A stretch of 64,000 nt of DNA from an uncultured Actinomycetes bacterium. GTDB lineage: Bacteria; Actinomycetota; UBA4738; HRBIN12. Position numbers and translations under genes: made by a program. Location of the stretch: NCBI GenBank assembly GCA_963704725.1, contig OY969934.1, positions 2,432,001 through 2,496,000 on the forward strand, written 5' to 3'. The notes below the pieces were generated by a model. That model saw only the letters and a list, made by a program, of their open reading frames with translations. It ran no database searches and had not been told where the DNA came from. How positions within the stretch are numbered: the stretch's first letter is position 1; each line of letters starts with the position of its first letter. Shown piece by piece: positions 40,245 through 56,141 of the stretch.

Positions 40245-40297
40245 CCCACTCCCTCTCGCGACAGGACGATCCCGGGCATGCTATCCGTATCGGGGAC

Positions 40298-41302
40298 ATG
40301 GACCTGCGAGCCGCGCCGAAGGTCGACCTGCATCGGCACCTGGAGGGGGCGATCCGCCTCCAGACCCTCATCGACCTCGCCCGCGAGGCCGGCGAGCCCC
40401 TGCCGGAGACCTCGCCCCAGGAGCTCGCCCCGCGAGCGCAGGTGCTCGGCCCGATGACGAGCCTCGAGGCGGTGCTCGCGTTCTTCGGCATCGCCCAGCA
40501 GGCTTTCCGCGACCCGGAGGCCGCCGAGCGGATCGCCTTCGAGGCGGTCGAGGACCTCGCGATCGACGGGGTTCGCCTGGCGGAGCTGCGGTTCTCGCCC
40601 GACTTCCTGTGCCGGCCGCACGGGCTCGATTGGGACGAGGCGTTCGGGGCGATCGTGCGGGGCGTCGAGCGCGCCTGTAGCCAGCACGACGTGACGATCG
40701 GCCTGATCCCGATCGTCTCCAGGAACTACGGGATGGAAAGCGCCGAGCGGACGGTGGCGTTCGCGCTGCGACACCGGGACCAGCTCGTGGGGTTCGACCT
40801 CGCCGACGAGGAGCGCTCGTTCCCGCCGTCGATGTTCGTCGACGTGCTGGCCCCGTTGGCCGACGCGAACCTTCCGCTCACGGCGCACTACGGGGAGGCC
40901 GGCGGCGCCCAGTACCCGCGCGAGGCGATCGAGGCGCTCGGCGTCCGGCGGCTCGGTCACGGCGTCAGCGTCGCGGAGGACCCGGAGGTCACGGCGCTGG
41001 CCCGAGATCGCGGCGTGACCCTGGAGATGTGTCCGACCTCGAACTATCGAACACACACCGTCGAACGGCTGGCCGACCATCCCGCCCGACGGCTGCTCGA
41101 TCAGGGTGTGCTCGTCACCATCAACACGGACGACCCCGGGTTGTTCGGGATCACGCTGTCGCACGAGCTCGAGGTGTGCCGCAACGACCTCGGCTTCACC
41201 GACGACGAGCTGCGCCGCGTGACCCAGATCGCGATCGACGCGAGCTTCGTCGACGAGGCCACCAAAGCCGTTGTCCGCAGGCGCCATTTCGATCGCGCCT
41301 AG
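40298..41302 (+). CDS. add: Adenosine deaminase
   Basis: DLHRHLEG, HYGE, RLGHG, CPTSN, NTDDP. Confidence 0.93.
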   Translation: MDLRAAPKVDLHRHLEGAIRLQTLIDLAREAGEPLPETSPQELAPRAQVLGPMTSLEAVLAFFGIAQQAFRDPEAAERIAFEAVEDLAIDGVRLAELRFSPDFLCRPHGLDWDEAFGAIVRGVERACSQHDVTIGLIPIVSRNYGMESAERTVAFALRHRDQLVGFDLADEERSFPPSMFVDVLAPLADANLPLTAHYGEAGGAQYPREAIEALGVRRLGHGVSVAEDPEVTALARDRGVTLEMCPTSNYRTHTVERLADHPARRLLDQGVLVTINTDDPGLFGITLSHELEVCRNDLGFTDDELRRVTQIAIDASFVDEATKAVVRRRHFDRA

Positions 41303-41351
41303 CTGGCCGATTCGTCCATCTACCTGCGGGTTCACCTAGCCCTGCGTCCCT

Positions 41352-41389
41352 GGGGCGTTCGCCCCTGTAGATGACGGGACACTTGGGCG
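41352..41389. promoter_or_regulatory. Paired DosR/DevR-like boxes upstream of hdrC
   Basis: Palindrome GGGGC-GTTC-GCCCC (41352-65) and GGGAC-ACTT-GGGCG 24 bp downstream. Confidence 0.4.
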
Positions 41390-41439
41390 ATGGTGCGGGG
41401 GTAGCGCAGTGTTCGTGACGCAGGAGGGCAGCCATCGCT

Positions 41440-42072
41440 ATGCGGACGAACGGAACGCTGACGGAGGCGCCGCGCGAGACCGACGCCCGGAAGAAGTGGC
41501 GACCGGTCAAGGACCAGTCGAAGTTCGAGGCCCAGCTCGACCCGGGGTTCGCCGCGGAGATCGCTCGAGAGGTTCCCGGCGGAGAGCTCTTGCACCAGTG
41601 CATCCAGTGCGGCACCTGCAGCTCGGTGTGCCCGCTGAGCGCGTACATGGACTTCACGCCCCGGCGGCTGATCGCGATGACCAGAGCCGGCGACCGGGCT
41701 GACGTCCTGCACAGCATGACGCCTTGGGTGTGCGCTTCGTGCTACGCGTGCACGGTCGAGTGCCCCAAGCGGATCCCGATCACCGAGATCATGCACGCGT
41801 TGCGGCGGATCTCGTTGCGGGAGAAGACGTACCCGCGACGGTTCACCACACCGGTCATGACCCGGGAGTTCGTCGACATGATCCGTGCTCGCGGACGAAG
41901 CACCGAGGCCTGGATCTCGTTGAAGCTCTACCTGAGGACCAACCCGGCCCTGCTGATCAAGAACGCGAAGCTCGGGGCGCGGCTGTTCCGCCAGGGGCGC
42001 CTGAGCGCGAGGCGTGAATCCATCCGGGCCCGGCGGGATCTGCAGACGCTGCTCAAGGCGGCGGCGTCATGA
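41440..42072 (+). CDS. hdrC: Heterodisulfide reductase subunit C
   Basis: CIQCGTCSSVCP and WVCASCYACTVECP; first gene of the hdr-mvh operon. Confidence 0.93.
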   Translation: MRTNGTLTEAPRETDARKKWRPVKDQSKFEAQLDPGFAAEIAREVPGGELLHQCIQCGTCSSVCPLSAYMDFTPRRLIAMTRAGDRADVLHSMTPWVCASCYACTVECPKRIPITEIMHALRRISLREKTYPRRFTTPVMTREFVDMIRARGRSTEAWISLKLYLRTNPALLIKNAKLGARLFRQGRLSARRESIRARRDLQTLLKAAAS

Positions 42073-43007
42073 GGTACGCCTACTACCCCGGCTGCTCGGC
42101 GAAGGGTGTCGGCCGCGCATTCAGCGAGTCGCTGGACGCGGTCTTCGAGCACCTCGGCTCGGGCCTGGACGAGCTGGACGACTGGAACTGCTGCGGCGCC
42201 ACGGCATGGCCCTCCGTGGACCAGAACCAGGCGTACGCGCTCTCCGCTCGGAACCTGGCGCTCGCGGAGGACGCCGCCGAGGGCGACCGCCCGGTCGACC
42301 TCCTTGCGTCGTGCACCGGCTGCTACCGCGCGCTGCTCAAGGCGGAGGAGGCGCTCGGCGAGGGAGGCGCCGCCGGCCGCAAGATCGGGGGGGCGCTCGC
42401 CGCCATCGGCCTGGACTTCGAGGGCCGCGCCCGGACGCGTCATCCCGTCGACATCCTTCTGAACGACATCGGTATCGAGGCGATCTCGAAGGCGGTCGTC
42501 CGACCCCTCACGGGCGTGAGGGTGGTGAGCTACTACGGGTGCCAGCTCGTCCGGCCGTTCGCGGCGTTCGACGACCAGTGGAATCCGACGTCGATGGATC
42601 GACTCATCGCGGCCATCGGCGCCGAGCCGGTGGATTGGCCGCTCAAGTCGCGGTGCTGCGGCGGGTCCTGCTACTGCGGCGGGCCCGTCATCGGCACGAT
42701 GCCCGAGGCCACGATGCAGCTCAGCCACGCGCTGCTCCGGGAGGCGACGAAGCGCGGCGCGGACGTCATCGCGACGATCTGCCCGCTCTGCCATTTCAAC
42801 CTGGAGGGCTTCCAGGACCGCATGACGCGTCGATTCGGGCACCCCCACGACATGTCGGTCGCGTTCATCTCGCAGTTGATCGGGATCGCGCTCGGGATCG
42901 ACGAGCGGAGCCTCGGGATCCACCGGCTGTTGCGCTGGCGACTGCCCGAGCACGAGGCGGCCCCCGAGGCCACGTCGACGGAGGGAGGCGTCCATGCTCG
43001 AGCCTGA
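42069..43007 (+). CDS. hdrB: Heterodisulfide reductase subunit B (two CCG domains)
   Basis: YYPGC, WNCCGA, CTGC, YYGCQ, CCGG, CPLC. Confidence 0.93.
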   Translation: MRYAYYPGCSAKGVGRAFSESLDAVFEHLGSGLDELDDWNCCGATAWPSVDQNQAYALSARNLALAEDAAEGDRPVDLLASCTGCYRALLKAEEALGEGGAAGRKIGGALAAIGLDFEGRARTRHPVDILLNDIGIEAISKAVVRPLTGVRVVSYYGCQLVRPFAAFDDQWNPTSMDRLIAAIGAEPVDWPLKSRCCGGSCYCGGPVIGTMPEATMQLSHALLREATKRGADVIATICPLCHFNLEGFQDRMTRRFGHPHDMSVAFISQLIGIALGIDERSLGIHRLLRWRLPEHEAAPEATSTEGGVHARA

Positions 43008-45018
43008 GGGCGCCCTCGCTTCCGCGCCCGTCTCCGCGAACGGCGGCCCCAAGATCGGCGTCTACGTCTGCCACTGCGGCCTCAACATCGCCGGCAAGGT
43101 CGACGTGCCGGCCGTGGTCGGGTTCGCCTCGGGCCTGCCCGACGTCGCCGTAGCGCGCGAGTACAAGTTCATGTGCTCGGACCCGGGCCAGGAGATGATC
43201 GAGAAGGACCTGCGCGACGGCCTCGTCAACCGCGTCGTCGTCGCGTCGTGCTCTCCGTTGATGCACGAGGCCACGTTCCGCCGCGCCACGGCCAAGGGGG
43301 GGCAGAGCCCCTTCTACTTCCAGATGGCGAGCATCCGGGAGCACGTCTCGTGGGTGACCGCCGACGGGGACCGGGCCACCGAGAAGGCCAAGGCCCTGGT
43401 GGCGGCCGCGGTCCGCCGCGTGGCGCTGCACGAGTACCTCGAACCCCGCAAGGCCGAGGTCCGGCCGGACGTGTTGATCGTCGGCGCCGGCATCGCCGGG
43501 ATCCACGCCGCCCTGACGCTCGCGGAGGCCGGCAAGCACGTCTACCTCGTCGAGCGCGAGACCACGATCGGCGGCCACATGGCCAAGTTCGACAAGACGT
43601 TCCCGACGCTGGACTGCGCGGCCTGCATCCTCACGCCGAAGATGTCCTCGGTGCGCTCGCACCCGAACATCACGCTGTGGACGTACTCGGACGTCGTCGG
43701 CGTCGAGGGCTTCACGGGCGACTTCACCGTCAGGGTCCGCCACCGTCCGCGGTACGTGCGCGAGGACCTCTGCACGGGGTGCCTCGAATGCATCGAGAAG
43801 TGCATCCACAAGCAGGGCAAGTTCGAGGACGAGTGGAACGAGGGACTCTCCAAGCGCAAGCCGATCTACATCCCGTTCCCGCAGGCGACGCCCCCGGTGG
43901 TCGTCGTGGATCCGGACACGTGCATCTGGTTCAAGACCGGCAAGTGCCCCCAGACGTGCATCGAGGCCTGCGAGCGCGACGCGTTCGACTTCGAGCAGAC
44001 CGAGACGTTCGACGAGGTGAAGGTGGGCGCGATCGTCCTCGCGACCGGGTTCAAGACCTTCGACGCCTCGAAGATGCCCGAGTACGGATACGGCCTCTAC
44101 CCGAGGGTCTACACGAGCCTGGAGGTGGAGCGGCTGCTGAACGCGGCCGGGCCGACGAACGGCGAAGTGGTGCTCAGGGACGGCTCGACGCCCAAGGTGG
44201 TCGGGATCATCCACTGCGTGGGCTCTCGGGACGCCAAGCACAACCTGTGGTGCTCGAAGGTGTGCTGCATGTACTCGCTGAAGCTCGCGCACATGGTGAA
44301 GGAGCGCACCGGCGCCGAAGTCTACAACTTCTACATCGACATGCGCACCCCGGGGAAGGGATACGAGGAGTTCTACGACAAGATCCTCAAAGAAGGCGTG
44401 CACATGGTGCGGGGCCGGGTCGCGGGCGTGAGCGACGAGGCCGCGTCACCCGAGGAAGAGGGGCACCTGGTCATCCGGGCCGAGGACACCCTGATCGGAT
44501 CGGTGCGAAGGATCCCGGTCGACATGGTGATCCTCGCGGTCGGCATCGAGCCGCGGCCCGACGCGCAGGACGTGCGACGGCTCTTCAACATCTCCTGCGG
44601 CGGCGAGGGGTTCTTCACGGAGCGCCACCCCAAGCTCGCGCCGGTGTCGACGTTCACCGACGGCGTGTTCCTCGCCGGCGCGTGCCAGGGCCCCAAGGAC
44701 ATCCCCGACACCGTCGCCCAGGCCGGCGCCGCGGCGGCCGAAGCGCTAGCGATGATCGACCGCGGCTTCGTGATGCTCGAGGCGAACACGGCACACATCG
44801 ACGAGGACGCCTGCTCGGGCTGCAAGACGTGCGTCGGCCTGTGTCCCTTCGGCGCGATCTCCTTCGACGAGGAACGCAAGAAGGCGTCCGTGAACGAGGT
44901 GGTGTGCAAGGGCTGCGGCGTGTGCGTCGGGGCCTGCCCGTCGGGCGCCGCGCAGCAACACCTGTTCACCGACGCGGAGATCCTCTCCGAGATCGAGGGG
45001 GTGCTGGCGTATGTCTGA
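42994..45018 (+). CDS. hdrA: Heterodisulfide reductase subunit A (FAD, Fe-S)
   Basis: VCHCGLNI, GAGIAG, KTFPTLDC, LEVERL, HCVGSRD, CSKVCCMYSLK, GACQGPKDI, C-terminal 2x[4Fe-4S]. Confidence 0.96.
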   Translation: MLEPEGALASAPVSANGGPKIGVYVCHCGLNIAGKVDVPAVVGFASGLPDVAVAREYKFMCSDPGQEMIEKDLRDGLVNRVVVASCSPLMHEATFRRATAKGGQSPFYFQMASIREHVSWVTADGDRATEKAKALVAAAVRRVALHEYLEPRKAEVRPDVLIVGAGIAGIHAALTLAEAGKHVYLVERETTIGGHMAKFDKTFPTLDCAACILTPKMSSVRSHPNITLWTYSDVVGVEGFTGDFTVRVRHRPRYVREDLCTGCLECIEKCIHKQGKFEDEWNEGLSKRKPIYIPFPQATPPVVVVDPDTCIWFKTGKCPQTCIEACERDAFDFEQTETFDEVKVGAIVLATGFKTFDASKMPEYGYGLYPRVYTSLEVERLLNAAGPTNGEVVLRDGSTPKVVGIIHCVGSRDAKHNLWCSKVCCMYSLKLAHMVKERTGAEVYNFYIDMRTPGKGYEEFYDKILKEGVHMVRGRVAGVSDEAASPEEEGHLVIRAEDTLIGSVRRIPVDMVILAVGIEPRPDAQDVRRLFNISCGGEGFFTERHPKLAPVSTFTDGVFLAGACQGPKDIPDTVAQAGAAAAEALAMIDRGFVMLEANTAHIDEDACSGCKTCVGLCPFGAISFDEERKKASVNEVVCKGCGVCVGACPSGAAQQHLFTDAEILSEIEGVLAYV

Positions 45019-45493
45019 GACGATGCCCGAGCCCTTCGAGCCGCGGATCGTGGCGTTCTTCTGCAACTGGTGCACCTACACCGCCGCCGACCTCGCCGGC
45101 ATCTCGAGGATGACGTACGCGCCGAACGTGCGGGCGATCCGGCTGATGTGCTCCGGTCGGGTGGACCCGCAGTTCGTGCTGGCGGCCTTCCGGGGCGGCG
45201 CCGACGGCGTGCTGATCGGCGGATGCCACCCGGGCGACTGCCACTACCAAGAGGGCAACTACAACGCCCTGCGAAGGTTCGAGCTCCTTCGCTCGATGCT
45301 CGAGCAGATGGGCATCGAGCGGGAGCGGATCCGCCTCGAGTGGATCTCGGCGTCAGAGGGCGATCGCGTCCAGCGGGTCTGCAACGAGATGACCGAGCAG
45401 GTCCGGGCCCTCGGCCCCCTGCAGCTCGCGATCCCCCAGCGCGTTGGGGCACCGGCCCCGGCGGTGGAGCTCGTGCTGGAGGCGTCGTCATGA
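45011..45493 (+). CDS. mvhD: MvhD [2Fe-2S] subunit
   Basis: FCNWC, MCSGRV, GCHPGDCHY, WISASEG. Confidence 0.95.
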   Translation: MSETMPEPFEPRIVAFFCNWCTYTAADLAGISRMTYAPNVRAIRLMCSGRVDPQFVLAAFRGGADGVLIGGCHPGDCHYQEGNYNALRRFELLRSMLEQMGIERERIRLEWISASEGDRVQRVCNEMTEQVRALGPLQLAIPQRVGAPAPAVELVLEASS

Positions 45494-46482
45494 CCAAGCC
45501 GAAGGTCGCCTTCTACTGGTGCGCCTCGTGCGGCGGCTGCGAGGAGGCCGTCGTCGACCTCGCCGAGGTGGTGCTCGACGTGGTCGAGGCGGTCGACATC
45601 GTCTTCTGGCCGGTGGCGCTGGACTTCAAGGTCTCCGATGTCGAGGCCATGGCGGACGGCGAGCTCGCCGCGACGTTCGTCAACGGCGCGATCCGCACCT
45701 CCGAGCAGCGCGAGATGGCCGAGCTGCTGCGGCGCAAGTCCGGCGCCATCGTGGCGTTCGGGGCGTGCGCGTGGCTCGGCGGCATCCCCGGACTGGCGAA
45801 CCTGTCGAGCCGCGAGTCGATCCTCGAGTTCGTCTACCACGCCTCGCCCAGCGTCCAGGACGGAGCCGGCGTGGCGCCGCAGGAGCTCACCGAGGTGCCC
45901 GAGGGCAGCCTCACGCTCCCCCACTTCGAAGAGACCGTTCGCACGCTCGACCAGGTGATCGACGTCGACTACTACCTTCCCGGCTGCCCGCCGCCGTCGA
46001 GTCTCATCGCCCAGGCGGTGATGGCGCTCGTCGAGGGCCGGCTGCCCGAGAAGGGCTCGGTCCTCGCACCCGACGTGGCCCTGTGTGCCGAGTGCCCACG
46101 CGCCGACTCCAAGCCCCAGGATCTGAAGATCGGCGCATTCAAACGGCCGTACGAGATCGTCGCGGATCCCGAGACCTGCCTGCTCGCGCAGGGGCTGGTG
46201 TGCCTGGGACCGGCCACGCGCTCGGGGTGCGGCGCCGTGTGCGTCGGCGCGAACATGCCGTGCACCGGATGCATGGGCCCCACGAGCCGCGTGATCGATC
46301 ACGGCGCCAAGGCTCTGGCAGCCATCGCGTCGCTCATCGACGCGAGCGAGGAGCCCGAGGTCGCCGCCATCGCTGACGGGATCGTCGACCCGGTCGGAAC
46401 GTTCTACCGATACAGCTTGCCGGCCTCCCTCCTGCACCGTCGGGTGGAGAAGGCGTCCGCATCGAGGGGGTCCTCGTCATGA
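45490..46482 (+). CDS. mvhG: Group 3c [NiFe]-hydrogenase small subunit
   Basis: WCASCGGC, FGAC, LPGCPP, CAECP, CLGPATRSGC, PCTGC. Confidence 0.93.
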   Translation: MTKPKVAFYWCASCGGCEEAVVDLAEVVLDVVEAVDIVFWPVALDFKVSDVEAMADGELAATFVNGAIRTSEQREMAELLRRKSGAIVAFGACAWLGGIPGLANLSSRESILEFVYHASPSVQDGAGVAPQELTEVPEGSLTLPHFEETVRTLDQVIDVDYYLPGCPPPSSLIAQAVMALVEGRLPEKGSVLAPDVALCAECPRADSKPQDLKIGAFKRPYEIVADPETCLLAQGLVCLGPATRSGCGAVCVGANMPCTGCMGPTSRVIDHGAKALAAIASLIDASEEPEVAAIADGIVDPVGTFYRYSLPASLLHRRVEKASASRGSSS

Positions 46483-47939
46483 CCGAGATCCTGATCGATC
46501 CCATCACCCGGCTCGAGGGTCACGGGCGGATCCACATCTTCCTCGGCGAGGGCGGCGAGGTGGACCACGCCTACCTGCAGATCCCCGAGCTCCGCGGCTT
46601 CGAGAAGTTCGCACAGGGCCGCCGGGCCGAGGACATGCCCCAGATCACCTCCCGCATCTGCGGCGTCTGCCCGATGGCGCACCACATGGCCGGGACGAAG
46701 ACGCTCGACGACCTCTACCACGTGGACCCGCCGGTCGCCGCGAAGATGGTCCGGGAGCTCGTCTACGACGCGTTCATGGTCGAGGACCACGCCCTGCACT
46801 TCTTCTTCCTCGGCGGGCCCGACTTCGTCGTGGGCCCGACCGCGCCGAAGGCCGAGCGCAACATCCTCGGCGTGATCGGCAAGGTGGGTCTGGAGGTCGG
46901 CAAGGAGGTCATCGGCCTGCGCAAGGAGCTCCGAGACCTCATCAGCGCGGCGTCGGGCAAGGTGATCCACCCCGTCTTCGGGTTGCCGGGCGGCGTCTCC
47001 CAGCCCATCTCCGCCGAGCTGCGTGAGCGGTTCGTGGCCGGTGCCGCGCACGCGGTCGAGTTCGGCAAGTTCTCCCTCCAGGTGTTCCGCGACCTCGTCC
47101 TGTCCAACGCCGAGTACGTGGACATGATCACGTCCGAGGCCTACACGCATCGCACCTACTACATGGGTCTGGTCGACGAGGCCGACCGCGTCAACTTCTA
47201 CGACGGCCGGCTGCGCGTCGTGGACCCCGACGGCAAGGAGTTCCTCACGTTCGGCGCGAGGGAGTACCTGGACCACATCACCGAGCACGTCGAGCCGTGG
47301 AGCTTCATCAAGTTCTCCTACCTGAAGGACGTCGGCTGGAACGGGTTCACGGACGGCGCCGACAGCGGCGTGTTCGCGGTGGCGCCGCTGGCGCGACTGA
47401 ACGCGTCGGAGGCCATGTCGACGCCGGTCGCGCAGGAGGCCCGCGAGGAGCTCTTCTCGACGCTGGGCGGCCGGCCCGTCCACCACACGCTGGCCACCCA
47501 CTGGGCCCGGCTGGTGGAGCTGGTGAACGCGGCCGAGCGGATGGGCGAGCTGGCGGCCGATCCCGAGATCACGAGCCCCGAGGTCCGGACGATTCCGACC
47601 GAGACGCCGACGGAGGGCATAGGCGTCGTCGAGGCGCCGCGCGGAACGCTCCTGCACCACTACCGGACGGACGAGCGGGGGCTCATCACCTCGGCGAACC
47701 TCATCGTGGCGACGCAGAACAACGCGGCCCGGATCGCGCTGTCCGTGGACAAGGCGGCGAAGGCGATGATCCACGGCCCCGAGGTCGACGAGGGTCTGCT
47801 GAACAAGGTCGAGATGGCCTTCCGCGCCTACGACCCGTGCTTCGGCTGCGCCACCCACAGCCTGCCGGGCGAGATGCCGCTCATCGTGCAGATCCGCGAT
47901 CACCAGGGCGACCTCGTCCGGGAGATCCGCCGGGACTAG
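46479..47939 (+). CDS. mvhA: Group 3c [NiFe]-hydrogenase large subunit
   Basis: ITRLEGH, L1 RICGVC, EAPRG, L2 RAYDPCFGCATH plus cleavable C-terminal tail. Confidence 0.95.
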   Translation: MTEILIDPITRLEGHGRIHIFLGEGGEVDHAYLQIPELRGFEKFAQGRRAEDMPQITSRICGVCPMAHHMAGTKTLDDLYHVDPPVAAKMVRELVYDAFMVEDHALHFFFLGGPDFVVGPTAPKAERNILGVIGKVGLEVGKEVIGLRKELRDLISAASGKVIHPVFGLPGGVSQPISAELRERFVAGAAHAVEFGKFSLQVFRDLVLSNAEYVDMITSEAYTHRTYYMGLVDEADRVNFYDGRLRVVDPDGKEFLTFGAREYLDHITEHVEPWSFIKFSYLKDVGWNGFTDGADSGVFAVAPLARLNASEAMSTPVAQEAREELFSTLGGRPVHHTLATHWARLVELVNAAERMGELAADPEITSPEVRTIPTETPTEGIGVVEAPRGTLLHHYRTDERGLITSANLIVATQNNAARIALSVDKAAKAMIHGPEVDEGLLNKVEMAFRAYDPCFGCATHSLPGEMPLIVQIRDHQGDLVREIRRD

Positions 47940-47944
47940 CGATC

Positions 47945-48469
47945 GTGCGCACGCTGGTCCTCGGGCTGGGCAACGAGCTCGCCGGCGACGACGCGGTCGG
48001 TCTCATGGTCGCGAGGGCCCTGCGGGAGCCGCTCGCCGGGGTGGCCGACGTCGTGGAGAGCTCGTCGTCCGGTCTGGCCCTGATCGAGGTCCTCGCGGGC
48101 TACGACCGCGCCGTGGTCGTCGATGCGATCTGCACGGGACGCACGCCGCCAGGCACCATCACGGAGATGACGCTCGCCCAGGTGGGCCGGGTCGTCGCGC
48201 CGAGCCTTCACCAGGCCGGCCTGCCCGAGCTCGCCGCCGTGGCCGAGCGCCTCGGCCTGCGATTCCCGAGCAGGACCCGCGTGTTCGCGGTGGAGGTGCT
48301 GGATCCGTACACGCTCGGGGCCGACATGAGCCCGCCGGTGGCCGGCGCGGTCCCCGAGCTCGTGCGTCGGGTGCGGGATCGGGTCGAGCGATGGACCAGG
48401 GACCGGGACGACCAGGGAGGCACCGGATGCACGACTACTACGCCGTCGAGACGCTCGTCGAACAGCTGA
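47945..48469 (+). CDS. Hydrogenase maturation protease
   Basis: GLGNELAGDDAVG, VVDAI, SLH. Confidence 0.9.
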   Translation: MRTLVLGLGNELAGDDAVGLMVARALREPLAGVADVVESSSSGLALIEVLAGYDRAVVVDAICTGRTPPGTITEMTLAQVGRVVAPSLHQAGLPELAAVAERLGLRFPSRTRVFAVEVLDPYTLGADMSPPVAGAVPELVRRVRDRVERWTRDRDDQGGTGCTTTTPSRRSSNS

Positions 48470-48801
48470 CGAAGGAGCTCGGAGGCCTCGGCGATCCCGG
48501 GGCGGAGCGGGTCCAACAGGTTCGGGTGCGAGCGGACGTGACCCTGTCGCCTGAGTCCCTCGAGCAGGCCTACGAGATGCTGACGCAGGACACGCCGCTC
48601 GAGGGATCCCGGCTCGTCTTCGCCGGGCCGCCCGACGAGCGGTGGTGCGAGACGTGCGGACACCGGTGGGCGGCGACCCACGACGACGTCGCCGGGCACC
48701 TCCTGATCTGCCCCTCGTGCGGCACGCTCATCCCGATCGAGTCGAAGGTCACGATCGAGGTGCTCGAGATCACGAGCGCACCCGCCGCCGGCGCTCGCTG
48801 A
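48427..48801 (+). CDS. hypA: HypA/HybF nickel metallochaperone-like protein
   Basis: N-terminal MHD, CETC and CPSC Zn motifs; GGAGG RBS. Confidence 0.8.
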   Translation: MHDYYAVETLVEQLTKELGGLGDPGAERVQQVRVRADVTLSPESLEQAYEMLTQDTPLEGSRLVFAGPPDERWCETCGHRWAATHDDVAGHLLICPSCGTLIPIESKVTIEVLEITSAPAAGAR

Positions 48802-48983
48802 CCTCCCCTGGGGTCAGCGGACCGCCCCGAGCACGGCTGAGGTTGGAGCTCTGCAGGTAGGCCATGGCCACGCCGTGGGCCCTCATCGCGCGCTCGGGGT
48901 GCTCCCAGACCTTGTCGTCGTAGATGGGCACCTCGTACCGAGGGCCCGCCGATAGGATTTGGCCGCCACGACCTGGAGGGACG

Positions 48984-50639
48984 ATGACCGACGCATCCGA
49001 GGCCGCCCGAACGCTCATCGATCGCTACTGGGAACGGCTCCTCGAGCACGAGCCGATCCTGGGCACCCTGATCGGCGACGAGCGCTACGACGATCGGCTC
49101 CCCGATCCGAGCGAGGCCGGCCGGGCCGCCGGCTTGGCGCTGCACCGGTCGGCGCTCGAGGAGCTCGCCCTGCTCGAGCGCGACCTCGACGACGAGGACC
49201 TGCGCACCTCGCTCGACGTCCTGGAGGCGATCGCCTCCCGCGAGATCGCGGCGCTCGAGCATCGCCTCGACCGGCTCTCGGCCGTGAGCCACCTGTGGGG
49301 GCCGGGCGGGCTGGTCGGCGAGCTCGCCTCGATGCAGCGGGCGGACACGCCGGAGCGGCTCGACCGGTACGTGGCCCGGCTCTCGGCCACCCCGGCCTAC
49401 TACGACGCGATCCTGGACGTGATGCGGGACGGGATCGCCGCCCGGGTCACCGGCCCGAAGGTGGTGGTGGAGCGCGCGATCGCCCAGGTCAACCGGCTGC
49501 TCGAGACGCCGGTCGAGGACTCCCCCGCCCTCCTTCCCGTGGCCGCGGAGGATGCCGCCGGCCGGGAGCGCGTGACCGGCGCGCTGCGCGACCGCCTGCA
49601 CCCGGCGCTCGCCCGGTACCTGGACGCGCTCGAGGAGTACCTGCCGCACGCGACCGACACGATCGGCCTGTACGCGCTGCCGGACGGCGAGGAGATCTAC
49701 GACGCACAGATCCTGTCGTGGACCACCCTCCCCCTGCGGGCCAGGAAGGTGCACGAGCTGGGCGTCGAGGACCTGGCCGGGATCCAGGACGAGCGGCGGC
49801 TGTGCGCGGAGCGGATCGGGGCGCCCACCGCGGCGGCCGCGGTCGAGCTCCTGGACGAGCGAGGCAACCGCGCCGAGTCACGGGAGCAGCTCCTGGCGCT
49901 GGCCGAGCGACAGGTGGCCAAGGGGTGGGACGCGGCGCCCGCGTGGTTCGGGCGGATGCCCTCGGAGAGCTGCCACGTCAAGGCGGTCGAGGAGTTCCGC
50001 GAGGCCGACATGCCGTTCGCCTTCTACCAGCCTCCGTCGGCGGACGGGTCGCGCAAGGGCGTGTACTACGTGAACGCGGGCGACCTGGGCGACAAGCCCC
50101 TGCACCACCTGGCCACCACCACGTACCACGAGGCCAACCCCGGTCATCACTTCCAGATCGCGCTCGAGCAGGAGGCCGGCGAGCGCCCGACGCTCCGGCG
50201 GTTCGGCGGGCTCATGGCCGGCTCGGCGTTCGCCGAGGGGTGGGGCCTGTACAGCGAGCGGTTGGCGGACGAGATGGGCCTGTTCGCCGACGAGCCGGAG
50301 CGGATGGGGATGCTGGACATGCAGGGCATGCGGGCGGCGCGCCTCGTCGTCGACACCGGGATCCACGCGTTCGGCTGGACGCGCGAGCAGGCGATCGCCG
50401 AGCTCGAGGGAGCCGGGGTCCCCTCCCTCGACGCGGCGATCGAGACCGACCGCTACATCACGATGCCCGGCCAGGCGCTCTCGTACAAGATCGGGCAGTT
50501 CGAGATCGAGCAGCAGCGGGCGGACTCCGCCGAGCACGAGGGGGCGGCGTTCTCCATCGCCGCCTTCCACGACCGCCTGTTGGCGCTCGGATCGCTCCCG
50601 CTCTCGGCGCTCCGCCGCGAGCTGGCCCGTTCGGCCTAA
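48984..50639 (+). CDS. DUF885 family protein (HEXXH-like metallopeptidase fold)
   Basis: HEANPGHH, EGWGLY, RAARLVVDTGIH, PGQALSYKIG. Confidence 0.9.
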   Translation: MTDASEAARTLIDRYWERLLEHEPILGTLIGDERYDDRLPDPSEAGRAAGLALHRSALEELALLERDLDDEDLRTSLDVLEAIASREIAALEHRLDRLSAVSHLWGPGGLVGELASMQRADTPERLDRYVARLSATPAYYDAILDVMRDGIAARVTGPKVVVERAIAQVNRLLETPVEDSPALLPVAAEDAAGRERVTGALRDRLHPALARYLDALEEYLPHATDTIGLYALPDGEEIYDAQILSWTTLPLRARKVHELGVEDLAGIQDERRLCAERIGAPTAAAAVELLDERGNRAESREQLLALAERQVAKGWDAAPAWFGRMPSESCHVKAVEEFREADMPFAFYQPPSADGSRKGVYYVNAGDLGDKPLHHLATTTYHEANPGHHFQIALEQEAGERPTLRRFGGLMAGSAFAEGWGLYSERLADEMGLFADEPERMGMLDMQGMRAARLVVDTGIHAFGWTREQAIAELEGAGVPSLDAAIETDRYITMPGQALSYKIGQFEIEQQRADSAEHEGAAFSIAAFHDRLLALGSLPLSALRRELARSA

Positions 50640-50670
50640 CGATCCCGGGCCCTCACGCCGCCCCGTCACG

Positions 50671-50708
50671 GGGCCGGTGGACCCGCGGTCCACAGGTCAC
50701 CTCGCCCT
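50671..50708. promoter_or_regulatory. Paired DosR-like boxes upstream of pntA
   Basis: GGGCC-GGTG-GACCC (50671-84) and degenerate GGTCA-CCTC-GCCCT 24 bp downstream. Confidence 0.3.
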
Positions 50709-50742
50709 AAGGAGGCACGCCTCCCGGTGCGAGCGTGTGGTC

Positions 50743-51918
50743 ATGGACACCGAACGGCTCGTCGTGGGCGTCCCTCGGGAGACCTTCCCGGGAGAGGCCC
50801 GGGTGGCGCTCGTCCCCGCGGTGCTGCCGCAACTCTCCAAGGCGGGGCTGGACGTGCTCGTCGAGGCCCATGCCGGTGAGATGGCGGGGTACCCCGACGA
50901 CGCCTACGTGGCACACGGCGCGCGGATCGGATCGCGCGATGACGTGTTCGCGGCGGACATCGTCGTGCAGGTGCGCACCTGCGGCATGAACCCGGAGAAG
51001 GGCCGGGACGACGTCGATCGATTCCGCCCAGACCAGGTCATCGCCGGGATGGCCGATCCCCTCGTCTGCCCCGCCGGCGTCCAGCAGGCGGCCGATCGCA
51101 AGGTGATCGGCTTCGCGCTCGACTTCATGCCGCGCATCACGCGCGCGCAGAGCATGGACGTGCTCTCGTCCCAGGCCACCGCCATCGGCTACAAGGCCGT
51201 GCTCCTGGCGGCCGAACGGATGCCGAAGATGTTCCCGATGCTGACCACGGCTGCGGGCACGATCCCGCCGGCGCAGATCTTCGTCATCGGGGCCGGGGTC
51301 GCGGGGCTCCAGGCCATCGCGACGGCTCGCCGACTCGGAGGAGTGGTCCAGGGCTACGACGTGCGACCAGCCGCGCAGGAGGACATCGAGAGCCTGGGCG
51401 CGCGATGCGTGCTGCTTCCGCTGGCCCCCGGCGATGCCGAAGACCAGAGCGGCTATGCCAAGGAGCTCGGCGAGGCCTTCTACAAGCGGCAGCAGGAGCT
51501 CATGGCCCAGGTGGTCGCGGGCGCGGACGCCGTCATCACGACGGCGCTGATCCCCGGCAAGAAGGCACCCATGCTGATCACGGCGGAGGCCGTCGCCGGG
51601 ATGCAGCCGGGATCGGTCATCATCGACTGCGCCGCGGAGCGGGGCGGCAACTGCGAGCTCACGCGTGCCAACAAGCGGGTCGTCACCGAGAACCGCGTGA
51701 TGATCCTCGGTCCCACGAACCTGGCCTCGACCGTGCCCTTCGAGACGAGCCACATGTACGCGAAGAACGTCACGGCGTTCCTCCTCCTCCTGGTCAAGGA
51801 CGGGAAGCTCGAGATCGACTACGAGGACGAGATCGTCAAGGGCACGCTCGTCACGCGCGAGGGCGAGATCGTGAACAAGAGGGTGCGAGAGGCGCTCGCG
51901 GAGGTGCAGGATGTCTGA
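50743..51918 (+). CDS. pntA: NAD(P) transhydrogenase subunit alpha, part 1 (dI)
   Basis: PRITRAQSMDVLSSQ, GAGVAGLQA, TALIPG, GGNCE. Confidence 0.95.
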   Translation: MDTERLVVGVPRETFPGEARVALVPAVLPQLSKAGLDVLVEAHAGEMAGYPDDAYVAHGARIGSRDDVFAADIVVQVRTCGMNPEKGRDDVDRFRPDQVIAGMADPLVCPAGVQQAADRKVIGFALDFMPRITRAQSMDVLSSQATAIGYKAVLLAAERMPKMFPMLTTAAGTIPPAQIFVIGAGVAGLQAIATARRLGGVVQGYDVRPAAQEDIESLGARCVLLPLAPGDAEDQSGYAKELGEAFYKRQQELMAQVVAGADAVITTALIPGKKAPMLITAEAVAGMQPGSVIIDCAAERGGNCELTRANKRVVTENRVMILGPTNLASTVPFETSHMYAKNVTAFLLLLVKDGKLEIDYEDEIVKGTLVTREGEIVNKRVREALAEVQDV

Positions 51919-52246
51919 CACCCTCGAGGTCAGCCTGTTCATCTTCGTCTTGTCGTCGTTCCTCGGCTACGCGGTCATCACGCGCGTGTCCAACCTGCTC
52001 CACACGCCGCTGATGTCGCTCACGAACGCGCTGTCGGCCATCTCGATCGTCGGCTCCCTGATCCTGGCCGGGGCCGGCGAGAAGGGATTCGCCACGGTGC
52101 TGGGCGCCATCGCGGTGTTCGCGTCGACCACGAACATCGTCTCCGGGTTCCTCATCACCGACCGGATGCTGAAGATGTTCCGCCGTCGTGAGGATCCCAA
52201 GAAGACGGCACCGGAAGCGGCACCGAAGGAGGTGCCGGCAGCATGA
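51911..52246 (+). CDS. pntA: NAD(P) transhydrogenase subunit alpha, part 2 (membrane)
   Basis: LHTPLMSLTNALS, GFLITDRMLKMF. Confidence 0.93.
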   Translation: MSDTLEVSLFIFVLSSFLGYAVITRVSNLLHTPLMSLTNALSAISIVGSLILAGAGEKGFATVLGAIAVFASTTNIVSGFLITDRMLKMFRRREDPKKTAPEAAPKEVPAA

Positions 52247-53655
52247 GCGACTTCATGAACGACACCTTCATGCCGCTCGCGTACCTGTTCGCCGCGGCCT
52301 GCTTCATCCTGTCGCTGAAGTGGCTCTCGCACCCGACGACCGCACGCAGGGGCGTGCGGACGGGCGAGGTCGGGATGCTCGTGGCCGTCGCCGCGACCCT
52401 GTTCCACTTCCAGATCGTCGAGTTCCAGTGGATCGTCATCGCCATCGTGGCCGGCGTCGCGCTGGGGGTGCCGCTCGGCCTGCTGGTCCCGATGACGGCC
52501 GTCCCCCAGCGGACGGCGCTGTCGCATGCGTTCGGCGCCGCGGCGGCGGGCCTGGTGGGGACCGCGGAGTTCTACCTCCACGGCCAGACGGCGGACAAGT
52601 CGACGCTCGTCGCCATCGGCCTCGAGGTCATCCTGGGGTTCCTGACCTTCACGGGCTCGCTGATCGCGGCCGGGAAGCTCCAGGGCATCGTCCGGGACCG
52701 CCCGTGGGTCTACAAGGGCCAGAACATCGTGAACCTGGCGATCCTGGGATCCGCCCTGGTGATGGTGGGGTTCCTGGTCGCCAAGCCGAGCCTCACGGTG
52801 CTGTTCCCCATCGTGATCGTGGTCTCGCTGGTGTTCGGCTTCATGCTCGTGATCCGCATCGGCGGCGCGGACATGCCGACCGTGATCTCGCTGCTGAACA
52901 GCTACGCAGGCCTGTCGGCCGCGATGATGGGGTTCGTCCTCGACAGCAAGCTGCTGATCATCGCCGGCGCCCTCGACGGCTCCAGCGGTCTGATCCTGTC
53001 GATCATCATGTGCAAGGCGATGAACCGGTCGTTCGCGAACGTCCTGTTCGGGGGGTTCGGCGCCGAGGACACCACGGGCGGTGGGGCGATCGAGCAGCGG
53101 CCGGTTCGCAGCGTCGACCCCGAGGAGACCGCCTACCTCCTCGACACGGCGCGCTCCGTCGTCATCGTCCCGGGGTACGGGATGGCTGCGGCGCAAGCCC
53201 AGCACAAGGTCCGCGAGCTCTCCGACGCGCTGCTGAAGCGCGGCGTCGACGTCAAGTTCGCCATCCACCCGGTGGCCGGGCGCATGCCGGGGCACATGAA
53301 CGTGCTCCTGGCGGAGGCCAACGTGCCGTACGACCAGCTGTACGACCTCGACACGATCAACAGCGACTTCCCGCAGACGGACATCGTGCTCGTGGTCGGG
53401 GCGAACGACGTGGTCAACCCGTCGGCGCGCACCGACACGGCGAGCCCGATCTACGGGATGCCGATCCTCGACGTCGACAACGCGGCGTCGATCATCGTGG
53501 TCAAGCGATCCATGCGCTCCGGCTTCGCCGGGGTGGACAACGAGCTCTTCTACCTGCAGAAGACCCAGATGCTCTTCGGCGACGCCAAGACCGTCATCGG
53601 CGGCGTCGTCGACGAGCTGTCACGACTGCCCGCCAGGGAGGTGTCCTCGGTATGA
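52243..53655 (+). CDS. pntB: NAD(P) transhydrogenase subunit beta
   Basis: IGGADMP, LNSYAG, PGYGMA, HPVAGRMPGHMNV, GANDVVNP. Confidence 0.96.
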   Translation: MSDFMNDTFMPLAYLFAAACFILSLKWLSHPTTARRGVRTGEVGMLVAVAATLFHFQIVEFQWIVIAIVAGVALGVPLGLLVPMTAVPQRTALSHAFGAAAAGLVGTAEFYLHGQTADKSTLVAIGLEVILGFLTFTGSLIAAGKLQGIVRDRPWVYKGQNIVNLAILGSALVMVGFLVAKPSLTVLFPIVIVVSLVFGFMLVIRIGGADMPTVISLLNSYAGLSAAMMGFVLDSKLLIIAGALDGSSGLILSIIMCKAMNRSFANVLFGGFGAEDTTGGGAIEQRPVRSVDPEETAYLLDTARSVVIVPGYGMAAAQAQHKVRELSDALLKRGVDVKFAIHPVAGRMPGHMNVLLAEANVPYDQLYDLDTINSDFPQTDIVLVVGANDVVNPSARTDTASPIYGMPILDVDNAASIIVVKRSMRSGFAGVDNELFYLQKTQMLFGDAKTVIGGVVDELSRLPAREVSSV

Positions 53656-55397
53656 GCATGACCCTCGAGCCCGAGCGACTCGCAGAGCACGCATGGTGTG
53701 AGCGGCTCAGGGCCGGCGCCGGGCCGGTCCCGGTCCCCTGTCGCGGCCTCGCGCTCCTCGAGCAACCCCTGCTCAACAAGGACACGGCCTTCACGGAGGA
53801 GGAGCGAGACGTCCTCGGGCTCCGCGGCCTCCTCCCGACCCGCATCCGGACGATCGAGGAGCAGGTCAAGCTCGAGATCGAGAAGAACCGGCGCAAGGGC
53901 GACGACCTCGAGCGGTTCATCGGGATCGCGGCGCTGCAGGACCGCAACGAGACGCTCTTCTACCGGCTGCTGCTCGAGTACCTCGAGGAGCTGATGCCGA
54001 TCGTCTACACGCCGGTCGTCGGCAGGGCCTGTCAGGAGTACAGCCACATCATGCGCCGGGCCCGTGGCCTGTGGCTCACGCCCGACGACATCGACCGCAT
54101 CCCCGAGCTGCTGGCCAACGCCCGGCACGAGGACGTCCGGCTCATCGTGGTGACCGACAACGAACGGATCCTGGGGCTCGGCGACCAGGGCGCGGGCGGG
54201 ATGGGGATCCCGGTCGGCAAGCTCTCCCTGTACACGGCGGGAGCGGGGATCTACCCGGCGCTGACGCTGCCGGTGTCGCTCGACGTGGGGACGGACAACC
54301 AGGCCCTGCTCGACGACCCCGACTACTTCGGCTATCGCCACCCCCGGCTGCGGGGACCCGACTACGACGCGTTCATCGAGGCCTTCGTGGAAGGCGTGCT
54401 CTCGGTGTTCCCCCACGCGGTCCTGCAGTGGGAGGACTTCAAGCAGCACAACGCGATCCGCCTGCTCGACCGCTACCGCCACCGCATCACGAGCTTCAAC
54501 GACGACATCCAGGGCACGGCGGCCGTGGTCATGGGCGGCGTCTACGGTGCGCTGCGGGTCCTCGACGAGCCCCTGAGCGACCAGCGACTCGTGTTCCTCG
54601 GCGCCGGAGCGGCGGGCATCGGCATCGCCCGTCTCGTTCGAGCGCAGATGGTCCGCGAGGGCGTTTCCGAGGAGCGGATCCGCCGGGCGATCGTGCAGCT
54701 CGACTCGCGAGGGCTGACCTACCTGGGACGCGAGCCGCTCGACGCGGACAAGGAGGAGCTCGCCCTCGGGGCGGAGGAGATGGCCGCGTACGGCTTCGAG
54801 CCGGGACAGATGTACGGGCTCGAGGAGGTCGTCAAGCGCGTGCACCCCACCTTCCTCATCGGAACGAGCGGCACGCCCGGGACGTTCACGGAGGTCGCCA
54901 TCCGAGAGATGGCGGCCCACGCGCGGATCCCGGTCGTCCTCCCGTTGTCCAACCCGACCTCGAAGACCGAGGCCCAGCCGGAGGACATCATGGAGTGGAC
55001 GCGCGGCCGCGCCATCGTCGCGACCGGCAGCCCCTTCCCTCCGGTCGTCCGCGGGGAACGGACCCACGTGATCGGGCAGGCCAACAACGCGTTCGTGTTC
55101 CCCGGCATCGGGCTCGGGGCGGTGGTCGCGGAGGCCCGCGAGGTGACCGACGAGATGTTCCTCGTCGCCGCCGAGGCCATGGCCGCCGTCGTCTCGGAGG
55201 AACGCCTGGCCGAGGGCGTGGTCTACCCCTCCCCGTCCGAGCTCCGCGTGGCCTCAAGGGCCGTCGCCGTCGCCGTGGTCAGAGCGGCCCGGGACGGCGG
55301 GGTCGGCCGCCATCTCTCCGACGAGGAGATCGAGGCGGCGGTCGACGAGATGATGTGGTTCCCGCAGTACCTGCCGTACGAACCGGCCCTTGCCTGA
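53652..55397 (+). CDS. maeA: NAD(P)-dependent malic enzyme (large, SfcA/MaeA type)
   Basis: NKDTAF, VYTPVVG, TDNERILGLGD, QWEDF, FNDDIQGT, GAGAAG, LSNPT, NNAFVFPG; ATGA overlap with pntB. Confidence 0.93.
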   Translation: MSMTLEPERLAEHAWCERLRAGAGPVPVPCRGLALLEQPLLNKDTAFTEEERDVLGLRGLLPTRIRTIEEQVKLEIEKNRRKGDDLERFIGIAALQDRNETLFYRLLLEYLEELMPIVYTPVVGRACQEYSHIMRRARGLWLTPDDIDRIPELLANARHEDVRLIVVTDNERILGLGDQGAGGMGIPVGKLSLYTAGAGIYPALTLPVSLDVGTDNQALLDDPDYFGYRHPRLRGPDYDAFIEAFVEGVLSVFPHAVLQWEDFKQHNAIRLLDRYRHRITSFNDDIQGTAAVVMGGVYGALRVLDEPLSDQRLVFLGAGAAGIGIARLVRAQMVREGVSEERIRRAIVQLDSRGLTYLGREPLDADKEELALGAEEMAAYGFEPGQMYGLEEVVKRVHPTFLIGTSGTPGTFTEVAIREMAAHARIPVVLPLSNPTSKTEAQPEDIMEWTRGRAIVATGSPFPPVVRGERTHVIGQANNAFVFPGIGLGAVVAEAREVTDEMFLVAAEAMAAVVSEERLAEGVVYPSPSELRVASRAVAVAVVRAARDGGVGRHLSDEEIEAAVDEMMWFPQYLPYEPALA

Positions 55398-55398
55398 A

Positions 55399-55435
55399 GG
55401 GTGACCGGTCCCGGAGGTTCCGGGCCCTCCCGCCC
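55399..55435. promoter_or_regulatory. Paired DosR-like boxes upstream of the second maturation protease
   Basis: GGGTG-ACCG-GTCCC (55399-412) and GGGCC-CTCC-CGCCC 23 bp downstream. Confidence 0.3.
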
Positions 55436-55598: not shown

Positions 55599-56141
55599 AT
55601 GACCGCCACGGTCACCGCCTCCGAGGTCCTGGTTCTCGGGATCGGCGACGGCCGGCTCGGTGACGAGAGCGTGGGGGTCCACGCGGCCGAGGCCGCCCGC
55701 CGGTGGCTCCCCGCAGAGGTTCGGGTGCTCGCCCTCGACGACATCGGCCCGGCGACGATCGCCGAGCTCGACGGGGCGACCCACATCCTGGTCCTCGACA
55801 GCATCGATGTGGGTCGGGAGCCGGGCACGATCGTCTGGTTCAACGCCGACGACCTGTCGCCATGCGCCACCCGGTCCGTGTATCGATTCGGCGTCGCCGA
55901 TCTGTTGGTCCGCGTGGGCCAGACGACCTCCGCGCCCGCGGAGGCCATCGTCCTGGGTGTCCAACCGTCGTGCGATGGGGGCTGCGACGACCTGTCCCCG
56001 GACGTCGAGGCGGCGGTGCCCCGGCTCGTCGATCAGGCGACGTGGATCGTGCGGGCGTGGCTCGACGGGATCCCGGCTCGCGAGGGATCTCACTCGGCCA
56101 AGCAGCCGTGCGGGGACGGGGCGAGCATCCGGATGGTGTGA
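55599..56141 (+). CDS. HyaD/HybD-like hydrogenase maturation protease homolog, degenerate
   Basis: VLVLGIGD..LGDESVG, LDSID, LGVQP; conserved His appears replaced (SVY). Confidence 0.75.
   Translation: MTATVTASEVLVLGIGDGRLGDESVGVHAAEAARRWLPAEVRVLALDDIGPATIAELDGATHILVLDSIDVGREPGTIVWFNADDLSPCATRSVYRFGVADLLVRVGQTTSAPAEAIVLGVQPSCDGGCDDLSPDVEAAVPRLVDQATWIVRAWLDGIPAREGSHSAKQPCGDGASIRMV

Follow-up and report, generated by a model that had tools for sequence, protein, structure and literature searches.

An hdrCBA-mvhDGA operon of the group 3c hydrogenase type in an actinobacterial lineage that encodes oxygen reductases

The operon and its cofactor sites

Here, we report an operon, hdrC-hdrB-hdrA-mvhD-mvhG-mvhA, followed by genes for a maturation protease and for HypA, in the chromosome of an uncultured Actinomycetes bacterium. 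The window, i.e., the whole stretch of DNA that was analyzed, is 64,000 nucleotides (nt) long (GenBank assembly GCA_963704725.1, contig OY969934.1, positions 2,432,001 to 2,496,000), and position numbers are window coordinates unless they carry the prefix C1 (contig of the host genome), G (genome), or L (locus). The host genome, G000, is a single contig of 3,450,992 bp with 71.3% guanine plus cytosine (GC), an estimated completeness of 95%, and a contamination of 0.75%. In methanogens, the complex of the [NiFe] hydrogenase MvhADG and the heterodisulfide reductase HdrABC uses two H2 for the reduction of ferredoxin and of the heterodisulfide of coenzymes M and B (CoM-S-S-CoB) via the flavin adenine dinucleotide (FAD) of HdrA, the disulfide being reduced between the noncubane clusters of HdrB (PMC5861303).

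An earlier note, made from the sequence alone, had placed the eight genes at this locus, and Pfam and NCBIfam matches agree with that placement (Table 1). The structural genes overlap at every junction, by 4 nt (hdrC/hdrB), 14 nt (hdrB/hdrA), 8 nt (hdrA/mvhD), 4 nt (mvhD/mvhG), and 4 nt (mvhG/mvhA). The most likely start of the protease, whose open reading frame (ORF) spans 47297-48469, is the GTG at 47945; this lies 5 nt past the mvhA stop and leaves no overlap between the two genes. For hypA, the ATG at 48427 is the probable start, since its Pfam match opens at residue 13 of the longer ORF from 48391. All eight ORFs are free of in-frame stops and therefore encode no selenocysteine. For the six structural genes, the ratio of nonsynonymous to synonymous substitution rates (dN/dS), measured against two relatives, is 0.08-0.36, similar to the 0.16-0.22 of the flanking genes. 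The operon is complete, intact, and has been under purifying selection in the past. Another ORF (45444-46376), considered as a candidate for mvhG, has no family match; the mvhG frame is the one that ends at 46482.

The Fe-S and NiFe ligands, described in the earlier note as Cys throughout, are indeed all Cys and intact, both by ligand counts and by alignment to solved subunits. MvhA has exactly four Cys, in RICGVCPMAHH (Cys61/64) and AYDPCFGCATH (Cys454/457), the latter followed by a 26-residue C-terminal tail, and fits the Mvh motifs printed in PMC6085437, i.e., L1 ICGxCxxxH and L2 AYDPCxxCATH. Its best NCBIfam model is VhuA (386 bits), followed at a distance by the sulfhydrogenase model (159) and FrhA (130). 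MvhG and MvhD (FlpD), whose presence next to MvhA marks group 3c, are encoded directly before it with 4-nt overlaps, and hdrCBA lies directly upstream, which completes the minimum set given in PMC6085437 for a bifurcating Mvh, namely a genome that also encodes HdrABC. HdrC has eight Cys at residues 54, 57, 60, 64, 98, 101, 104, and 108. HdrB matches the methanogen subunit 5odc_B with 144 bits, and all 10 ligand Cys of the two noncubane [4Fe-4S] clusters are aligned; HdrB has two Cys besides these. Across an alignment of 51 HdrB rows, each ligand is kept in 50 or in all 51. HdrA matches the methanogen HdrA 8rvu_a with 666 bits across residues 18-671, and the LEVERL and CCMYSLK stretches, on which the earlier note had relied, align with LELERM and CCMYIMK of 8rvu_a; we take these residues to serve the bifurcating flavin. 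HypA has four Cys as two CxxC pairs. We conclude that the operon is a genuine chromosomal locus for a predicted cytoplasmic [NiFe] hydrogenase of the group 3c type (MvhAGD) together with HdrABC, its own endopeptidase, and HypA.

HdrB differs from its homologs outside the phylum by a six-residue Cys-bearing insertion, CYCGGP. The insertion is found in 14 of 14 actinobacterial HdrB rows and in none of the 37 rows of other phyla, although in two of the 14 it reads CYGADP, giving one extra Cys rather than two. When representatives of 50%-identity clusters from a library of 1.84 billion proteins were ranked by their match to HdrB, three of the top 150 carried it (ranks 1, 3, and 24). According to the alignment with 5odc_B, it adjoins the ligands of the C-terminal noncubane cluster. 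As far as these alignments reach, the insertion appears specific to the Actinomycetota clade of HdrB; it may line the substrate pocket, and it suggests a pocket particular to this clade.

Table 1. Genes and features in the operon region of the window
Feature	Position	Strand	Remarks
hdrC	41440..42072	+	210 amino acids (aa), two [4Fe-4S] motifs; Pfam Fer4_8 (Fer4 dicluster); CoB_CoM_SS_C 69 bits, cut-off 160
hdrB	42069..43007	+	312 aa; two Pfam CCG domains; CoB_CoM_SS_B 173 bits, cut-off 345
CYCGGP insertion in HdrB	42669..42686	+	residues 201-206, directly after second CCG motif (CCGGS-CYCGGP)
hdrA	42994..45018	+	674 aa, FAD flavoprotein, 28 Cys; HdrA2 model 788 bits, cut-off 1100
mvhD	45011..45493	+	160 aa; Pfam FlpD 188.7 bits
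mvhG	45490..46482	+	330 aa, hydrogenase small subunit, 13 Cys; Pfam Oxidored_q6 79.5 bits
mvhA	46479..47939	+	486 aa, [NiFe] large subunit; NiFeSe_Hases; VhuA 386 bits, cut-off 800
hydrogenase maturation endopeptidase (HycI/HybD-type)	47945..48469	+	TIGR00072 94.8 bits, cut-off 47.45
hypA, nickel metallochaperone	48427..48801	+	Pfam HypA 50.9 bits; longer ORF from 48391
adenosine deaminase (add)	40298..41302	+	left flank of the variable site; Pfam A_deaminase 282 bits
DUF885, pntAA, pntAB, pntB, malic enzyme	48924..55397	+	resident right block; Pfam; malic enzyme NF010052 743 bits
prot2, HycI-type maturation protease	55599..56141	+	6.8 kb past hypA; TIGR00072 81.8 bits
enoyl-acyl carrier protein (ACP) reductase	39441-40244	-	left of operon

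Phylogenetic position and genomic setting

The earlier note had called the operon methanogen-type; as a mark of rarity or of archaeal transfer, this term has to be withdrawn. Our species scan for MvhA, with one genome per prokaryotic species, returned at least 598 stretches, at least 538 of them encoding relatives. The best 80 loci (MvhA 59-89% identical) were compared in detail, and their titles include Actinomycetota, Planctomycetota, Verrucomicrobiota, Chloroflexota, Omnitrophota, Zixibacteria, Marinimicrobia, and others, plus two archaea. All six hdr/mvh genes are present in 47 of the 80 and the gene order of the window in 44; of the remaining 33 loci, 22 are cut short by a contig end, with under 5.6 kb ahead of mvhA, and in the other 11 no hdrC or hdrB is recognizable. 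A protease follows mvhA in 54 of the 80 loci, and hypA follows the protease in 14. With at least 538 relatives and the same order in 44 of 80 loci, we consider this an ordinary bacterial Hdr-Mvh operon and no import from methanogens. MvhA is also represented by more than 120 clusters at 90% identity among the matches listed (75-91% identity, mostly from metagenome sources at JGI and ENA), some of them named "F420-non-reducing hydrogenase large subunit" or "Ni/Fe hydrogenase subunit alpha" (Actinomycetota bacterium, Solirubrobacteraceae bacterium). The enzyme type is already known, widespread, and widely annotated in metagenomes.

Among the trees that the earlier note had proposed was one of MvhA. 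In a maximum likelihood tree of 75 MvhA rows and an outgroup (LG+G4, with supports from ultrafast bootstrap and from the Shimodaira-Hasegawa-like approximate likelihood ratio test, SH-aLRT), the window MvhA falls inside the bacterial radiation, in a 16-row clade with 100/100 support; a quick tree recovered the same clade. Fifteen of its rows are titled Actinomycetota (including Gaiellales, Solirubrobacteraceae, Acidimicrobiales, and Streptosporangiaceae), and one is a 5.4-kb contig titled Planctomycetaceae. L043, whose row is a group 3b large subunit, and L076 and L079, which have long branches, were left out of this tree, as were earlier L042, L048, and L067 with short or interrupted MvhA matches. 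Five loci of the second actinobacterial subclade (L026, L030, L033, L039, and L085; about 4.9-8.6 kb in the locus) have an hdrA region of about 3.4-3.6 kb or two HdrA-like ORFs, which suggests an enlarged or duplicated HdrA.

The picture of a Mycobacterium-like host could not be upheld: the class-level group of G000 comprises only 294 species genomes in all (293 others, in a search open to 400) in eight families, mostly multi-contig assemblies that are titled metagenome-assembled genome (MAG) where titles exist. Twelve of the other 293 class genomes, scattered across seven genera, have an orthologue of at least 76% identity, as do 3 of the 40 nearest relatives and 3 of 400 genomes taken as an even sample of the phylum. 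G000 encodes one heme-copper oxidase subunit I (COX1) and, for cytochrome bd, two subunit I genes. Eleven of the 12 operon-bearing class relatives also have COX1. Of 18 other phylum genomes with an MvhA-like match, the 15 at 42-59% identity, which are about 1.2 to 2.8 Mb in size, have no COX1; the single one at 75% identity and the two at 39-40% have it. This pattern assigns the window's clade to oxidase-bearing Actinomycetota and the distant 3c-like enzymes of the phylum to genomes without that oxidase. The window copy belongs to a branch of the bacterial Hdr-Mvh radiation carried by Actinomycetota that also encode oxygen reductases.

The operon is an accessory block, present or absent at one site within the host genus. 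Briefly, a 20-kb DNA query (38500-58499) was searched in five same-genus genomes. G009 reads adenosine deaminase, 16 bp, DUF885, pntAB, malic enzyme, 15 bp, and a cyclic nucleotide monophosphate (cNMP)-binding gene, without the 7.65-kb hdrC-to-hypA block and without a 0.78-kb piece that carries prot2 in the window; G010, G005, and G004 also have neither, which leaves the site empty in four same-genus genomes. G007 (contig C51) is colinear with the window from hdrC past prot2, over more than 15 kb, with 79% DNA identity in the block and 81% in the flanks, and both G009 and G007 keep the DUF885-to-malic-enzyme block with a DNA identity of 80-82%. The upstream side of the operon is not conserved in G007, and the hdrC upstream regions of the two genomes do not align past the ribosome-binding area. 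Synonymous divergence from G007 is 0.50-0.73 in the block and 0.56-0.72 in the flanks. Since prot2 is absent together with the operon in G009, there are two related indels on either side of one conserved block. In L019 and L022, prot2 stands directly after hypA, and in the window it is parted from hypA by DUF885, pntAB, and malic enzyme. Near its N-terminus, prot2 reads GDGRLGDE where the first protease has GNELAGDD; it was counted as a third HycI-type protease gene. We also observed that in five of the six genes (not mvhD) synonymous divergence is 0.40-0.56 from L019, of another genus, and 0.50-0.73 from L020, of the same genus, and that MvhA groups with L019 in the quick tree (support 85); this lower divergence and the pairing hint that the block has been exchanged within the family.

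The [NiFe] large subunits in G000 are the 3c-type MvhA and one of the sulfhydrogenase type (group 3b), plus NuoD. The group 3b cluster is located at C1:275-279 kb with an NAD(P)-binding gamma subunit and its own protease, adjoined by hypF and by hypC, hypD, and hypE (C1:281-284 kb), and this 3b-protease-hypFCDE-arginase array stands alone at 275-285 kb. By comparison, L021, L043, and L051 have group 3b genes, a protease, and then hdrCBA-mvhDGA-protease (L043 stops inside mvhA); after the operon, L021 and L051 continue with hypA, hypF, hypD, and arginase, in L051 with hypE too, and L019, which begins at the protease, continues with hypA, a prot2-type protease, hypF, hypD, hypE, and arginase. 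In related genera, the operon between the group 3b cluster and the hyp genes forms one hydrogenase supercluster, relative to which the Hdr-Mvh part has been relocated in G000.

Proposed function and alternatives

As the earlier note had expected, the host is an actinobacterium with aerobic respiratory genes and without a detected Wood-Ljungdahl marker; CdhC/AcsB (acetyl-CoA synthase), RuBisCO, and DsrC were not found in G000. Its statement that the methanogen heterodisulfide is unavailable to the host is very likely correct: neither ComA nor McrA was found in G000 at its 95% completeness (the genes for coenzyme B synthesis were not searched), and CoM-S-S-CoB is therefore very unlikely as the substrate of HdrB here. 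Mycothiol disulfide, one of the substrates the note had offered, is unlikely as well, the sole MshC model match in G000 being a CysS-like gene with 225 bits against a cut-off of 485, and so is a DsrC trisulfide. On the ferredoxin side, G000 encodes two 2-oxoacid:ferredoxin oxidoreductases (POR_N), one of them a long pyruvate:ferredoxin oxidoreductase (PFOR) of the NifJ type. All 12 relatives that carry the operon have the NifJ-type PFOR, and so do 9 of 14 high-quality, operon-free relatives that were picked by hand. This agrees, if weakly, with an anaerobic, ferredoxin-linked side to the metabolism of the lineage. Separately, we noticed that the NifJ-type PFOR looks degraded in two operon-free genomes of the same genus, i.e., in G005 (C1:10717-12529, 47-48% identical, four in-frame TGA) and in G010 (C6:106075-108400), where it is split across two frames.

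The best explanation as a whole, to which we give a probability of roughly 0.55, is a methanogen-like bifurcating Hdr-Mvh complex that belongs to its own Actinomycetota branch, reduces a disulfide, and is active under O2 limitation. MvhA would split H2, and the electrons would travel via MvhG and MvhD until they reach the FAD of HdrA, where the pair would be split, one electron going uphill to ferredoxin and the other downhill via HdrC to the noncubane clusters of HdrB; these two clusters would then reduce a disulfide other than CoM-S-S-CoB. Because all parts for the methanogen chemistry are conserved, the same wiring is the most likely one. The complex presumably operates only when oxygen is limited, within a set of enzymes that balances redox state in hypoxia and connects H2, ferredoxin, and a thiol pool. 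This is expected because the methanogen complex is extremely O2-sensitive, being inactivated almost at once by traces of oxygen (PMC5861303), and because the host has two bd oxidases, PFOR, and a group 3b hydrogenase.

Several points weigh against this explanation, and some of them favor other readings. HdrA, HdrB, HdrC, and MvhA all score well below the equivalog cut-offs of their NCBIfam models (HdrA2, CoB_CoM_SS_B, CoB_CoM_SS_C, and VhuA; Table 1), so that functional equivalence with the methanogen enzymes is unsupported by these models; MvhA, for one, does not count by its score as an equivalog of methanococcal Vhu. For HdrB, the model that comes second is SdhE, the anchor of fumarate reductase (144 bits), and CCG-domain proteins act on non-disulfide substrates too. 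The target of HdrB may be other than a free disulfide, namely a persulfide or polysulfide, a dithiol held by a protein, or an acceptor without sulfur, with the Cys pair of the clade as an internal relay. We find this unlikely, even though HdrB has moved much further from its methanogen counterpart than HdrA has (144 and 666 bits), CYCGGP adds one or two Cys beside the C-terminal cluster ligands in this clade only, and DsrC, MshC, and ComA were not found, for all ten cluster ligands are retained, two clade members have just one extra Cys, and genes for TusA, DsrE, or lipoate-binding proteins are not among the conserved neighbors in the 18 loci compared for them. Reaction direction and electron acceptor are likewise putative, the PFOR association is weak (its controls were picked by hand and the relatives are non-independent), and no RNA run containing window positions 40300-49300 was listed. 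The complex may also run in reverse under hypoxia (confurcation), where PFOR-reduced ferredoxin and an NAD(P)H-reduced thiol would yield H2 as a fermentative vent beside group 3b. This is less probable than the preferred explanation. The placement of the operon directly between group 3b and hyp genes in related genera, its position beside the transhydrogenase pntAB and malic enzyme in the host genus, the PFOR and two bd oxidases, the lack of a second uptake-type large subunit in G000, and the listing of group 3b in HydDB as NADPH-oxidizing H2 evolvers (PMC5037454) are all in its favor; neighborhood by itself, however, gives no direction, proton reduction by a thiol would be uphill unless H2 is very low, as we deduce from the potentials in PMC5861303, and in the printed work excerpted here no bacterial Hdr-Mvh has been shown to work so.

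The maturation genes also weigh against the preferred explanation. In the search for hypBCDEF that the earlier note had asked for, hypC, hypD, and hypE turned up and hypB did not, and hypF is present with a frameshift, i.e., G000 does not have a complete intact HypABCDEF set. The absence of hypBCDEF, which the note had named as refuting its reading, thus applies in part. One extra base between C1:280808 and 280819 (L012:12808-12819) puts HypF_C_2 positions 1-96 and 97-241 in different frames, with hypC following in the first frame; it is either a real mutation (pseudogene) or a consensus error. HypF is needed for the cyanide (CN) ligands of any [NiFe] site, and at face value neither hydrogenase could mature with a frameshifted hypF. 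For HypB, the best model match in G000 is MeaB (37 bits), and none of the 12 operon-bearing relatives has a HypB over the TIGR00073 cut-off; the lineage seems to mature its [NiFe] hydrogenases with HypA and without a canonical HypB. A system that is non-functional in this strain, with the operon as an intact-looking relic heading for loss, would agree with the broken hypF, with the empty site in four same-genus genomes, and with the presence of the block in just 12 of 293 class relatives. We regard it as improbable: all eight operon ORFs are intact, dN/dS is well under 1 (though this mirrors past selection), and hypF, which is intact in L019, is the only break in about 40 kb inspected, where a single-base consensus error is possible. 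Least probable by far is that the locus was chimerically assembled or was acquired recently from an anaerobe. It is true that upstream conservation fails in G007 and that no independent contig spans the left junction between add and hdrC: five DNA runs (soil, wetland, and sediment) were listed for 40300-49300, each with 5-9% of the sampled words, and the four that were assembled gave short, low-depth contigs, none of which spans add-hdrC or hypA-DUF885, while one identical 151-nt piece covers just 41347-41497. The reported read joints have sides of 20-27 letters and are uninformative. The colinearity with G007 on the right side and a synonymous divergence in the block equal to that of the flanks, however, argue against both a chimera and a recent foreign origin; furthermore, the genome is one contig, GC content is even across the operon region, GC and third-position GC match those of the genome, MvhA is inside the Actinomycetota clade, and neither reads that break at 41.3 kb nor codon usage or phylogeny pointing outside the phylum were seen.

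Beyond the bifurcating Hdr-Mvh explanation preferred here, a wider proposal may be put forward, tentatively and in the expectation that it is more probably wrong than right. Oxygen-respiring Actinomycetota would keep their own bifurcating Hdr-Mvh lineage, whose HdrB would have been remodeled by the Cys-X-Cys insertion for a disulfide or polysulfide new to Hdr, and this complex would, with the group 3b hydrogenase, make up a hypoxia module in soil aerobes, either supplying low-potential ferredoxin from H2 or venting H2. Group 3b hydrogenase is hypoxia-induced in mycobacteria. If true, the proposal would overturn the view of Mvh-type bifurcation as confined to strict anaerobes.

Known systems and further observations

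All six subunit types of the methanogen MvhADG-HdrABC (5odc, 8rvu, 7bkb, and 9sfi) have counterparts in the window: HdrA is full length, the ten Cys of HdrB, eight of HdrC, and four of MvhA are conserved, and the FAD-site motifs align. The differences are that the host is a bacterium with oxygen reductases in which McrA and ComA were not found, that its HdrB is distant (144 bits) and carries the six-residue Cys insertion, that all subunits score below the equivalog cut-offs, and that the six genes overlap and share a single operon with a protease and hypA. The operon is also without an MvhB-type polyferredoxin gene; no gap among the eight genes exceeds 5 nt, which leaves no room for one. Closer are the hdrCBA-mvhDGA operons of Verrucomicrobiota, Planctomycetota, Chloroflexota, Omnitrophota, Zixibacteria, and others, which have the same order and an MvhA 59-75% identical; the window's clade is set apart from these by the HdrB insertion, by hypA after the protease, and by hosts with heme-copper oxidase.

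A bacterial HdrABC plus MvhD module is likewise seen in MetFV-HdrABC-MvhD of Moorella (PMC5861303) and in the hdrA-mvhD-metVF-hdrCB clusters of Wood-Ljungdahl Actinobacteria (PMC7325909), the latter in the same phylum. Clusters of this type are without MvhAG and belong to acetogen-type anaerobes, whereas the module in the window is wired to a hydrogenase and CdhC was not found in G000. The sHdr-type complexes of aerobic sulfur oxidizers are a precedent for Hdr-like proteins in oxygen-respiring bacteria. The HdrA-like chain 6tjr_A (349 residues), which presumably comes from a sulfur oxidizer, matches residues 345-587 of the window HdrA with 164 bits; in contrast to sHdr, the window HdrA is full length and hydrogenase-linked, and lipoate-binding or sulfur-carrier genes were not seen among its neighbors. 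The group 3b NADP-coupled hydrogenase (sulfhydrogenase type) of the same genome has a large subunit about 35% identical to MvhA and an NAD(P)-binding gamma subunit where Hdr stands in the operon.

In a survey of complete genomes, Poudel et al. (2018) recorded Mvh-Hdr from obligate anaerobes alone and concluded that aerobic cells have almost no bifurcating enzymes (PMC6085437). For anaerobic Actinobacteria with the Wood-Ljungdahl pathway, Merino et al. (2020) reported both hdr-mvhD clusters and hydrogenases of group 3c (PMC7325909), and a floodplain-soil study scores group 3c as "bidirectional", with no comment on the hosts in its excerpted text (PMC8141241). Our full-text literature search returned no paper on an Hdr-Mvh operon in oxidase-bearing Actinomycetota; supplements were outside this search, and soil MAG tables (e.g., PMC8141241) may list group 3c there. 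Of interest here are the oxygen-respiring hosts of the clade, the clade-specific change in HdrB, and the exclusion of the usual substrates. The question of what a bacterial HdrB reduces is now set in a lineage where CoM-S-S-CoB, DsrC, and mycothiol can be excluded from the genome, and the insertion marks residues to probe, although practical value is limited by an uncultured host and an enzyme type that is widely annotated.

Around the operon, scans for regulatory elements gave little: no promoter-like site and three terminator-like sites (2.7 expected by chance) in 40900-56400, and no match to an Rfam family in 38000-58000. An actinobacterial MAG locus (L048:12777-18958) has a second hdrC-, hdrB-, and hdrA-like set downstream of its first operon. 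The flanking genes named in the earlier note, i.e., enoyl-ACP reductase, a JAB-type mec, a ThiS-family cysO, a PALP-type cysM, an Asp/Glu racemase (murI), and RNase PH (rph), were all recovered by family matches. Between cysM and cysO lies an M6 metallopeptidase gene of the "immune inhibitor A" kind (InhA-like_MAM, 30215-32566, minus strand), which is unrelated to the InhA enoyl reductase; the mec-cysO-cysM-murI-rph neighborhood is otherwise Mycobacterium-like.

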